Of a stretch of 64,000 nt of DNA, positions 60,401-63,400 are shown piece after piece (positions within the stretch are counted from its first letter, which is position 1; the number at the start of each line of letters is the position of its first letter). The stretch is from Elusimicrobiota bacterium. Lineage in GTDB: Bacteria; Elusimicrobiota; Elusimicrobia; 2-02-FULL-39-32. Where the stretch lies: NCBI GenBank assembly GCA_016180425.1, contig JACPBF010000001.1:341381-405380 (forward strand), written 5' to 3'. Made by a program: the position numbers.

Positions 60401-63400
60401 CAATGAACAAATTTCGATTGTGAAGACTTTAAAAGATCGATACCCATTATCCAGACATATTGCCGGCGGGCCGCATGCGATTGAATTTCAAGAGGACTGT
60501 TTAAAAATATTTGATTCTCTGATTATTGGTGATGGAGAGGAATTAATAATTCAATCTGTCAAGGATATGATATGTTTGAAATTAAAACCGATCTATAAAC
60601 AAGAATCAGTGGTAGATATAAATCAATACCCTTATCCCCGTAGAAAATGGCTTACAGAATCTACGATCTCCAGAAAAGGTCCAGGACGAGGGTTAATTTC
60701 ATTAAAGAATAAGCAAGAATACGAAAACCTGATGAGTACCACGGCAATTTTTAGCAGGGGATGCCCCTATAAATGTCATTTTTGTCATATGCCCAATACA
60801 AAAAAATATGGACTAGGAATACGATTTAGAAAACCAGAATTAATTAAAGAAGAGATCGAATATCTTAAAAAAGATTACGGCATCCAAGCGATTAGTTTTC
60901 TAGATGAGATTTGCATGCCATTAAACCGTGACAAAACAATTGCTCATCTGGAAGCAATAGGCCAAACAGGAATACTCTGGAAAGCTCAGTGCAGAGTGGA
61001 CGGCATAACTCCTGAGATTGCCGCTTTAGCGAAAGGAGCCGGCTGCGTCATTATGTGTATGGGCATGGAGAGTGTTTCACAAAAATCTTTAGACCTCATC
61101 AATAAAAAAATCAGTGTTGAACAGGCTAAGAAATCGATCCGTCACTTGAAAAATAACGGGATTGAGGTTCGGATATACCTGATTCTAGGATTACCCGGAG
61201 AACCAAACGATATTGTAGAGCAGACTTGGACTTTTATAAAGGAAACTGAGCCTGACCTAGTTTATCTTTGCCTTTTGACAGTGAGGCCCGGAACCGAAAT
61301 GTACAATCATCCGGAAAAATTCGGGTTTAAGGCAGTAAATATGAATTGGGATAAAACGATGCACCTTCATAGCAGATATGAGGATGAATTCCCCTCTCTA
61401 AGTTTTGAGTATAGAGAACAAACACCCTGGGGTAAAAGTCTTAGCAATGACCGAATCATTAAAAATTACTTGGAACTACAAGAAACATTAAAAGAAGCTG
61501 GATTATGTACGCGTTAGAATGGTGATCTGTATTTGTCTAATAAAAACCTTATATAATCCCAGGACAATTAAAATGAAAAAAATTGGATTAATTGATTTAT
61601 CAAAGCATCTAACAATTATGATTTTAATTTCTAAAAATTTATAAAACAATCTATGGAAGGAGAGAAAAATATATGAACCAAAAAAAAAGAGCCGTTATTA
61701 TTACAGCCCAACATTTTCAAGATGAGGAATATATTTATCCTTATTACCGCCTTTTAGAAGCAGATTTTAAGCTGGACATTGCTATTAAAGATAAAACAGT
61801 TGTATATGGGAAATACGGTATCCCCGCCAAACCAACCATGGATACAAAAGATCTTGAAGAAAACGATTACGATGTTGTGGTCCTTCCCGGAGGACACGAA
61901 GCTCCGGACCGGGTTCGGCAGGATCAAAATGTGCTTAAATTTGTACGCGAGATGGCAGAAAAAAATAAAATCGTGGCTGCGATCTGTCACGGTCCATGGA
62001 TTATGATCTCCGCTAAGATTGTAAAGGGAAGAAAGATGACCGCCTATGAAGGAATTAAAGATGATCTAATCAACGCAGGCGCCAATTACCTCGATGCTCC
62101 CGCAGTTATTGATCGTAATTTCATTACCTCCCCGCATTACCGCAATAACGGGGACTTCATGCGCGAAGTTCTAAAAAAATTTAAAAAATAATAAACTCCT
62201 AAAAAAATTTTACCATCATTTTATCCTTGCCCATGATCAAATATTATTTAGCAGAAGATACCATCGATCGTAAAGATATCAATCAGCTGATCCGATGGCT
62301 GGGAACTTACCCTCGGCTAACTAAAGGGGAGGTTACACTTGAGTTTGAATCTAAATGGAGCCGATGGTTAGGAATAAAACATTCTGTTTTCTGCAATTCT
62401 GGATCCTCGGCAAATCTATTGATGTTTTACGCTCTTCTGCTTTCAGAAAAATTAAAAAATAAAAAAGTAGTGGTTCCAAGCGTTGGGTGGGTCACTTCAA
62501 TTGCTCCAGCAATCCAATTTGGATTTGAACCCATCATGTGTGAAGCGGATAAAGACACCTTCGGGCTGGATCTTGTCCATCTAGAATCTATCTTAAAAAA
62601 ACATCGTCCAAGCACGGTAATGATGGTTCAAGTTCTTGGTGTCCCGCACAAAATGAAAGAGATGCTGGAGTTAAAAAGAAAATATGGTTTTACACTTTTA
62701 GAAGATACCTGTGCAGCAATCGGAGCTTCTTATCAAGGGAAAAAAGCAGGATCGTTTGGGGATATGTCTAGCTTTTCATTTTATTTTGGTCATCAAATGT
62801 CAACCATTGAGGGAGGCATGGTTTCCACTAACAATAAAACTTACAATAATCTCCTTCTAATGTTAAGGAGCCATGGCTGGAGCAAAGACATAGAAAAAAC
62901 AGCACACAATGCTTTAGTTCGAAAATATAAGGTTGATGATTTTCATACTCCGTTTGTTTTTTACCAGCCTGGTTTTAACTTGCGTTCTTCCGACCTGAAC
63001 GCTTTCCTTGGAATTGGACAAGTTCAAAAACTAGATTGGATCATTTCTCGAAGACAGGAAAATCATCTGCGTTATAAGCAGCACTTAGGTGGAAAGTTTT
63101 ATATTCAAAAACCAGAAGTAGGTTCCATCATCTGTTCAATCCATTTTGGTTTACTTGCAAAAGACGCTAAACAAAGACGCTCCATTGTAAAAGCATTGGT
63201 TAAGAATGGGATTGAAACCCGTATATTCTCCGCTGGAAATCTTGGCCTCCACCCCTTCTGGTTTAACCGTTATGGAAAAGCCAGTTTTCCTATGGCAGAT
63301 AGAATTCATCATTGCGGACTTTTTCTCCCTAACAATCCTTCGTTAAAACTAAACGATGTAGACTTTATATCTAACATTGTTTTAAAAGCGATATGACCGC

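Follow-up and report, generated by a model that had tools for sequence, protein, structure and literature searches.

The locus examined here raises the question of whether a DegT-family protein with a histidine at its catalytic centre is a sugar 3-dehydratase or an aminotransferase and, if it is a dehydratase, which nucleotide sugar it acts on. The gene lies on the forward strand near the end of a 64,000-nucleotide stretch of contig JACPBF010000001.1 from an Elusimicrobiota bacterium, which is hereafter called the window. Judged by its sequence, the encoded protein falls within the ColD/E1 class of histidine-type sugar 3-dehydratases, on a deep branch, and is itself uncharacterised. It probably acts as a ColD-type, pyridoxamine 5'-phosphate (PMP)-dependent 3-dehydratase on guanosine diphosphate (GDP)-4-keto-heptose, which would be supplied by a neighbouring dehydrogenase of the 6vo6/Cj1427 kind.

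The first-pass annotation placed the open reading frame (ORF) at 62227-63396. The reading frame is real and lies on the forward strand, but the TTG at 62227 is probably not its start; the likely gene is 62233-63396, because the identical 387-aa protein P0001 (NCBI, from an Elusimicrobia metagenome-assembled genome, MAG) and all homologues begin at the ATG at 62233, two codons past the TTG. Residues are numbered from this ATG. The product, a predicted PMP-dependent nucleoside diphosphate (NDP)-4-keto-sugar 3-dehydratase, belongs to the DegT_DnrJ_EryC1 family (Pfam PF01041, 227.6 bits), and its best PDB matches by sequence were four chains of E. coli ColD/WbdK (2gms, E 1e-48), followed by Yersinia E1 (3bcx, E 2e-35), in phmmer searches. 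It reached none of the NCBIfam equivalog cutoffs, with 199.9 bits against 423 for RfbH, its top NCBIfam match, 196 against 423.5 for PseC and 109 against 631 for ArnB. The NCBI/GenBank record calls it a generic aminotransferase, and JGI homologues are named 'CDP-6-deoxy-D-xylo-4-hexulose-3-dehydrase'.

The first-pass annotation had also singled out the motif FYFGHQM, in which a histidine takes the place of the Schiff-base lysine found in FHPIKNM of ArnB, the lysine-containing DegT paralogue of the same window used here as comparator (22208-23383, forward strand; Pfam DegT, 429 bits). This motif is confirmed, and the swap is borne out by the alignments. The active-site motif is FSFYFGHQMSTIEGG (62773-62817). 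The query segment FYFGHQMSTIEGG pairs with SFYSHHIATMEGG of ColD in the phmmer alignments to PDB chains, and the column of His187 is the one altered in the H188N, H188K and S187N/H188K mutant chains of ColD in the PDB; therefore, His187 (codon CAT, 62791-62793) is the equivalent of ColD His188. The phmmer alignment to 3bcx likewise pairs it with E1 His220, and a four-way MAFFT alignment places His187, ColD His188, E1 His220 and the ArnB lysine in one column.

The histidine is invariant in all 47 close homologues (71-83% identity). A more distant set was made up of the 150 nearest 50%-identity cluster representatives from 1.8 billion proteins, 145 of which have a residue at this column; histidine occupies it in 143, tyrosine and serine in the other two, and lysine in none. 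As the histidine is kept in 47/47 close and 143/145 distant homologues, the alignments mark its presence at the lysine position as a property of the family and not an accident, and no Schiff-base lysine was found in the dehydratase or in about 190 relatives examined. Conserved columns of the cofactor pocket comprise N55-S56-G57, W86, E157-D158, S182, R212, H214, N249, R251 and R330, among which D158, N55-S56-G57, W86 and S182 are invariant or nearly so. To these latter residues we presumptively assign the pocket roles of an aspartate for the pyridine nitrogen, a Ser/Gly phosphate loop and a stacking aromatic residue.

The AlphaFold2 model of the protein is a confident one (predicted local distance difference test 90.5, predicted template modelling (TM) score 0.90), and its highest query-normalised TM-scores were to ColD chains (0.89-0.90 to 2gms). 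The fold search has no power to part dehydratases from aminotransferases, since 7b0m, GDP-perosamine synthase and PseC score equally well, and together with the 196-bit match to the PseC model this is what speaks for an ordinary sugar aminotransferase, as the NCBI record has it. That reading is scarcely credible: the Schiff-base lysine is missing in the dehydratase and its relatives, the PseC score falls below its cutoff, and, according to the title of PDB entry 3gr9, two substitutions (S187N and H188K) were what it took to make an aminotransferase of ColD. This conversion was reportedly described by Cook et al. in 2009.

Histidine-type 3-dehydratases are of two kinds, E1 and SpnQ having a four-cysteine [2Fe-2S] site and needing a reductase, and ColD having no cluster and its PMP being regenerated by glutamate (PMC8987622). 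Counted along the 3bcx sequence, the cysteines of E1 stand at 193, 251, 253, 257 and 261. Cys193, 251, 253 and 261 are presumably the [2Fe-2S] ligands, a numbering reportedly due to Agnihotri et al. in 2004. The E1 cluster is absent from the window's protein, which keeps the Cys193 equivalent alone (EDTC), as ColD does (EDNC), and has no cysteine in the stretch SHGWSKDIEKTAHNALVRK that the alignments place opposite E1 251-261. The query holds five cysteines, with C160 the one invariant across the subfamily, and an alternative iron-sulfur site built from these five was rejected on that ground. Furthermore, no E3-like flavin/iron-sulfur reductase domain was detected among the window ORFs scanned with Pfam.

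With the AscC/E1 iron-sulfur cysteines missing, the best reading is a ColD-type rather than an E1-type mechanism, which would be free of iron-sulfur, recycled by glutamate and dependent on PMP. An E1/SpnQ-type reductive 3-dehydrase, retaining its PMP and served by an iron-sulfur cluster and an external reductase, is very improbable. The JGI name of the homologues would favour it, as would the position of RfbH as top model at 200 bits and the ferredoxin and FAD/NAD oxidoreductase genes found 9 kb upstream in one Patescibacteria locus (L005); set against these are an RfbH score far under the cutoff, the loss of three of the four E1 ligands, the lack of any four cysteines invariant in the subfamily and the absence of the E3-like partner from the annotated window ORFs. 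E1 (AscC/DdhC/RfbH) and SpnQ thus resemble the query as DegT 3-dehydrases of the histidine type, with E1 His220 corresponding to His187, and differ from it in possessing the four-cysteine [2Fe-2S] site and its reductase.

The likeness to ColD (WbdK of E. coli O55, 2gms) extends from the DegT fold, the histidine and the lack of a [2Fe-2S] cysteine motif to the phosphate-contacting Arg331, which is kept as R330 in the query, and to the Fcl/ColC-like gene lying directly 3' of the dehydratase gene. The first-pass annotation had assigned the protein to the ColD/AscC class of 3-dehydratases; the ColD-type class stands, but orthology to ColD does not. Identity is 28-29% to ColD, 27-29% to E1, 31% to the C. 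jejuni HS:5 heptose C3-dehydratase and 25-26% to ArnB, and ColD and E1 are 32-33% identical to each other. Because characterised ColD-type enzymes, heptose-specific ones included, are 62-67% identical to one another (PMC10440746) and the query reaches only 28-29% with ColD, these identities make it not a ColD orthologue and place it on a separate, deep branch of the histidine-type clade. About 20 of the 50%-cluster representatives are nearer ColD in an identity matrix, some of them plainly so (50-53% to ColD, 31-35% to the query), and the rest are nearer the query.

The close subfamily is large and strikingly well conserved, with more than 7,700 matches, and the best 120 of these, all 71-100% identical, span Elusimicrobia, Deltaproteobacteria, Chloroflexi and Patescibacteria. 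Its signature consists of an invariant G186-H187-Q188 and a lysine at 218 (46/47), positions at which ColD, E1 and most other histidine-type relatives have S/G-H-H and an arginine; in ColD itself these are S-H-H and Arg219. The combination of G-H-Q and Lys218 may be a signature of substrate specificity.

Which substrate this might be is a question for the gene neighbourhood. Cluster genes were read on the forward strand from 44.5 kb to the window end and for a further 1.9 kb through a sequence-identical Logan contig (L001). The gene directly downstream of the dehydratase encodes the third Fcl/ColC-like short-chain dehydrogenase/reductase (SDR) of the cluster; it runs off the window (63393-64000, forward strand), measures 309 aa in full (L001:11161-12090), and has an ATG at 63393 that overlaps the dehydratase stop codon (ATGA). 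The protein scores 181 bits with the GDP-L-fucose synthase model against a cutoff of 500 and keeps the Ser-x-Cys and histidine residues of the Fcl epimerase/reductase. The proposal that the Fcl-like reductases flanking the dehydratase are ColC-type partners is thus sustained for this adjacent gene, but not for the other two, 2.6 and 7.8 kb upstream, which are without one or both of these residues.

The colitose-like pathway that was proposed for the locus from this arrangement would make the protein a true ColD orthologue in a route to a GDP-3,6-dideoxyhexose, with Gmd first making GDP-4-keto-6-deoxymannose, the 3-hydroxyl being removed next, and an Fcl-like enzyme carrying out C5 epimerisation and C4 reduction. 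The histidine without an iron-sulfur motif and the overlapping Fcl/ColC-like gene with its epimerase/reductase residues agree with such a route, and some related Patescibacteria loci do have bona fide gmd and fcl genes nearby (for example L018; Gmd 52%, Fcl 54% identity). We nevertheless regard it as quite unlikely, given the low identity to ColD. Moreover, E. coli Gmd and ManC found no tblastn match in the window or the 1.9 kb beyond it, and the Nudix protein of the cluster, which had been put forward as a GDP-sugar hydrolase, turned out to be unlike Gmm: it is NudE-like (66 bits, against 32 bits for NudK), and E. coli Gmm gave no tblastn match in the window. The cluster therefore differs from that of ColD in having neither gmd nor manC over this span, and its conserved neighbour is a Cj1427-like C4-dehydrogenase, not a 4,6-dehydratase. 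This neighbour, together with a heptose-type kinase and thiamine diphosphate (ThDP) enzymes, suggests a GDP-heptose-derived and possibly C4-branched sugar rather than colitose.

The C4-dehydrogenase candidate is a 312-aa SDR encoded just past the window (L001:12080-13018), two genes downstream of the dehydratase. The whole of this SDR aligns with PDB 6vo6/6vo8 (E 6e-119, 400 bits), and tblastn puts the identity at 56%. The 6vo6 chain, which we take to be C. jejuni Cj1427, a GDP-heptose C4-dehydrogenase, has as its nearest cluster representative a 313-aa C. jejuni protein (96% identical, 439 members). Cj1427 has been reported to oxidise C4 while the 6-hydroxyl is retained, and its tightly bound NADH is recycled with 2-oxoglutarate (PMC10680097). 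The kinase is an HddA-like sugar-phosphate kinase of the GHMP family (47946-48941, forward strand; NCBIfam HddA, 146 bits), whose best PDB matches are the heptose-phosphate kinases 3k85, 4n3o and WcbL (4usk).

The association of these genes was followed through 28 related loci, five obtained by exact-protein look-up and 23 from GTDB species representatives, 27 of which are informative since one (L028) ends right after the dehydratase gene. In 23 of the 27, a 6vo6 homologue (54-60% identical) is encoded on the same strand no more than 3.3 kb from the dehydratase gene, and in 12 of those 23 it stands within about 160 bp; 19 of the 28 have the HddA-like kinase (51-70% identity). The lineages represented are Elusimicrobia, Deltaproteobacteria, many Patescibacteria, KSB1, Omnitrophota and one Nanoarchaeota MAG, and the two most distant members (54-56% identity; Kiritimatiellales and Verrucomicrobia) have no adjacent partner. 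Genes resembling SIS/GmhA and transaldolase are found in L003 and nucleotidyltransferases in L005, L006 and L008; the window ORFs scanned yielded neither a nucleotidyltransferase nor GmhA or GmhB.

Two of these loci deserve mention in their own right. The Nanoarchaeota (DPANN) MAG contig JAUYPG010000004.1 carries the dehydratase (65% identical), the 6vo6-like SDR (54%) and the GHMP kinase (54%), which suggests either that the module has moved between domains or that the contig was misbinned. The closest species-level relative, Elusimicrobia RIFCSPLOWO2_02_FULL_39_32 (L008, 1-21158), has its cluster at the same place, directly after typA/bipA, with different contents, including a transketolase-like split pair, a D-2-hydroxyacid dehydrogenase, a nucleotidyltransferase and a second DegT gene of 30% identity; the locus looks like a variable glycan island.

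From the observed fold, the histidine at the lysine position, the lack of an iron-sulfur motif and the conserved synteny, we infer the catalysis, the substrate and the downstream steps as follows. The likely substrate is GDP-4-keto-heptose because the conserved partners are a 6vo6/Cj1427-like C4-dehydrogenase and an HddA-like kinase: the kinase route would supply GDP-heptose, which the dehydrogenase would convert to the 4-keto form. GDP-4-keto-6-deoxymannose is most likely not the substrate. By analogy with ColD, PMP would then form a ketimine with the C4 keto group of the NDP-4-keto-sugar, His187 would take the C4' proton of PMP and promote loss of the 3-hydroxyl, hydrolysis of the ene-amine would yield a 3-deoxy-4-keto sugar, ammonia and pyridoxal 5'-phosphate (PLP), and L-glutamate would regenerate PMP with release of 2-oxoglutarate. 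The adjacent Fcl-like enzyme might epimerise and reduce the predicted product, GDP-3-deoxy-4-keto-heptose, and/or a ThDP enzyme pair resembling pyruvate dehydrogenase (PDH) E1 might add a branch at C4, with C-methylation by B12-dependent radical S-adenosylmethionine (SAM) enzymes. The finished sugar would be passed to polyprenyl phosphate by a family 2 glycosyltransferase (GT2) and then to an acceptor by a GT-C enzyme. These downstream steps are suggested by gene content alone.

Several points weigh against this assignment of a ColD-type enzyme acting on GDP-4-keto-heptose. Identity to any characterised 3-dehydratase (ColD, E1) is 27-29%, and three residues of ColD are changed in the query, Ser187 to glycine, the second histidine to glutamine and Arg219 to lysine. 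The functional case is built wholly from homology and synteny; GDP as the nucleotide is read only from the Fcl-like, HddA-like and 6vo6-like partners; and 6vo6 is equated with Cj1427 presumptively, on the C. jejuni origin of the sequence. In addition, the contig runs past the region read and might encode a 4,6-dehydratase, GmhA/GmhB or a nucleotidyltransferase farther on, and Gmd-like SDRs (about 30% identity) adjoin the dehydratase gene in L010-L012, L014 and L023-L025, which makes a 3,6-dideoxy product possible.

This last point leads to the alternative that the same ColD-type chemistry is applied to a 4-keto-6-deoxy sugar, a heptose or a hexose, which a 4,6-dehydratase encoded elsewhere would supply. 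This 4,6-dehydratase might be encoded beyond the region read or be the extended SDR at 46256-47197 (forward strand), and the outcome would be a 3,6-dideoxy sugar like that of C. jejuni HS:5/HS:11. Every natural 3-dehydratase characterised works downstream of a 4,6-dehydratase (PMC8987622, PMC10440746), and the SDR at 46256 scores 183 bits with the LegB 4,6-dehydratase model and 148 bits with the deoxythymidine diphosphate (dTDP)-glucose 4,6-dehydratase model. This SDR, however, has STCH where 4,6-dehydratases have the T-D/S-E acid/base pair, and it is not co-conserved with the dehydratase, matching other loci at 23-33% except for 65% in L026, whereas the 6vo6-like dehydrogenase is nearly always present. 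The alternative is accordingly considered unlikely. The 5,6-dehydratase TunA has T-C-E at the position corresponding to STCH (PMC8987622).

Keeping to the proposed action on GDP-4-keto-heptose, one known parallel is that of the C. jejuni HS:5/HS:11 GDP-heptose C3-dehydratases, which depend on PLP/PMP and glutamate and act on GDP-heptose-derived 4-keto sugars (PMC10440746), as would the enzyme described here, and whose heptose context with an HddA-type kinase is shared. They differ in being 62-67% identical to ColD and 31% to the query and in naturally following a 4,6-dehydratase; their pairing with Cj1427 has been demonstrated only artificially, in vitro (PMC10680097). In that work, from the Raushel laboratory, Cj1427 was purposely paired with the HS:5 C3-dehydratase to make GDP-3-deoxy-4-keto-heptose in vitro, and the GDP-3-deoxy-heptoses derived from the combination were called novel (PMC10680097). 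No other relevant paper on '3-deoxy-heptose' was found in the literature searched.

A second parallel is provided by the branched sugars yersiniose/erwiniose and eurekanate (YerE, ErwE, EvdU5/EvdS3), in which a 3-deoxy-4-keto or 4-keto NDP-sugar and a ThDP enzyme give a C4 acyl branch. Split ThDP pairs resembling PDH-E1 or transketolase adjoin the dehydratase gene in L003, L005, L007, L008, L021, L022 and L026, and in eurekanate biosynthesis the C4 acetyl branching of 4-keto sugars has been put down, as a proposal, to PDH-E1-like heterodimers (PMC10338323). L007 adds a BphI/BphJ-like (ErwI/ErwJ-like) aldolase/dehydrogenase pair and a YerE-like ThDP enzyme, which is the gene logic proposed for erwiniose (PMC9306805). 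Those pathways differ from the present one in using a cytidine diphosphate (CDP)-hexose with E1/E3 or a uridine diphosphate (UDP)-pentose; here the 3-dehydratase is of the ColD type, the probable sugar is a GDP-heptose, and the cluster has B12-radical-SAM enzymes as well.

It can be suggested, as a tentative idea falling somewhat short of probable, that the subfamily is the natural partner of Cj1427-type C4-dehydrogenases and forms the entry to undescribed 3-deoxy, C4-branched and C-methylated heptose-derived surface sugars. The two reactions would be chemically coupled through 2-oxoglutarate, because the dehydratase would release it from glutamate and the dehydrogenase would consume it. If this is true, Elusimicrobia, Patescibacteria and Omnitrophota, and even DPANN archaea, would be expected to display such undescribed sugars on their surfaces. 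In practical terms, thousands of metagenomic homologues can be annotated better, the protein itself being labelled a generic aminotransferase in GenBank. More useful as a lead is the conserved pairing of the 3-dehydratase with a Cj1427-like C4-dehydrogenase, in the company of heptose kinase, ThDP and B12-radical-SAM enzymes; from it a natural route to 3-deoxy-heptoses and branched derivatives is predicted for uncultivated lineages with essentially uncharted surface glycans, a prediction open to direct test with the published C. jejuni substrates and assays.

The remaining genes of the cluster, from 44543 onward, all lie on the forward strand. At the cluster head, a 160-aa ORF with no Pfam match (44040-44522) stands between typA/bipA and the gene of a GT-C membrane glycosyltransferase (PMT_2/DUF6056; 44543-46150). 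The extended SDR is followed by the GT2, which resembles polyprenyl-phosphate sugar synthases (AglJ/ArnC-like; 47170-47928), and, after the kinase, by a cupin protein, possibly a sugar epimerase or isomerase (48974-49666), the PDH-E1 alpha/beta-like ThDP pair in two overlapping ORFs (49667-51471; Pfam E1_dh and Transket_pyr/Transketolase_C), and a B12-binding radical SAM enzyme resembling the C-methyltransferase KedN5 (51521-53485; NCBIfam NF033712, 274 bits). G+C content is 0.44-0.45 at 48001-54000, a stretch that spans the kinase, the cupin protein, the ThDP pair and this first B12-radical-SAM gene, against 0.33-0.40 elsewhere in the window, and this stretch may have been acquired separately.

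Next come the first Fcl-like SDR, which is without the epimerase cysteine and histidine and might be a plain reductase (53482-54471), a HemN-like radical SAM enzyme (54520-55965; TIGR00538, 414 bits), a second B12-binding radical SAM enzyme (55970-57817), and an Fe/2-oxoglutarate dioxygenase of the PhyH family (57886-58629). The HemN-like protein, although encoded inside a sugar-modification cluster, passes the cutoff of the HemN equivalog model (414 against 325 bits); in L022, its gene is kept at 53-54% identity alongside PhyH, DJ-1, E1 alpha/beta and B12-radical-SAM genes, with the cupin at 37%. Instead of a coproporphyrinogen oxidase, the HemN-like protein may be a methyltransferase of the HemN type. 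The second Fcl-like SDR keeps the histidine without the cysteine (58656-59645) and is followed by the Nudix hydrolase, a 178-aa protein resembling NudE and ADP-ribose pyrophosphatase (59632-60168), for which a role as an EvaA-type 2,3-dehydratase was rejected on account of its size, its single Nudix domain and its NudE-like profile. A third radical SAM enzyme of the B12 type (60180-61517) and a DJ-1/PfpI family protein with a 53% identical homologue in L022 (61673-62191) complete the series, the latter directly upstream of the dehydratase.

Apart from this cluster, the window holds a complete and separate operon for 4-amino-4-deoxy-L-arabinose (L-Ara4N; Arn) at 22208-29634, with ArnB, an ArnC-like GT2, an ArnD-like deacetylase and further genes. 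ArnA is split there into formyltransferase and decarboxylase genes, and the ArnT-like PMT protein has a PAP2 phosphatase domain fused to its N-terminus (24490-26697). Four successive ORFs on the reverse strand at 9404-13927 (181, 418, 288 and 618 aa) are without a Pfam match, except that the last carries a type IV pilin-like N-terminal methylation motif.

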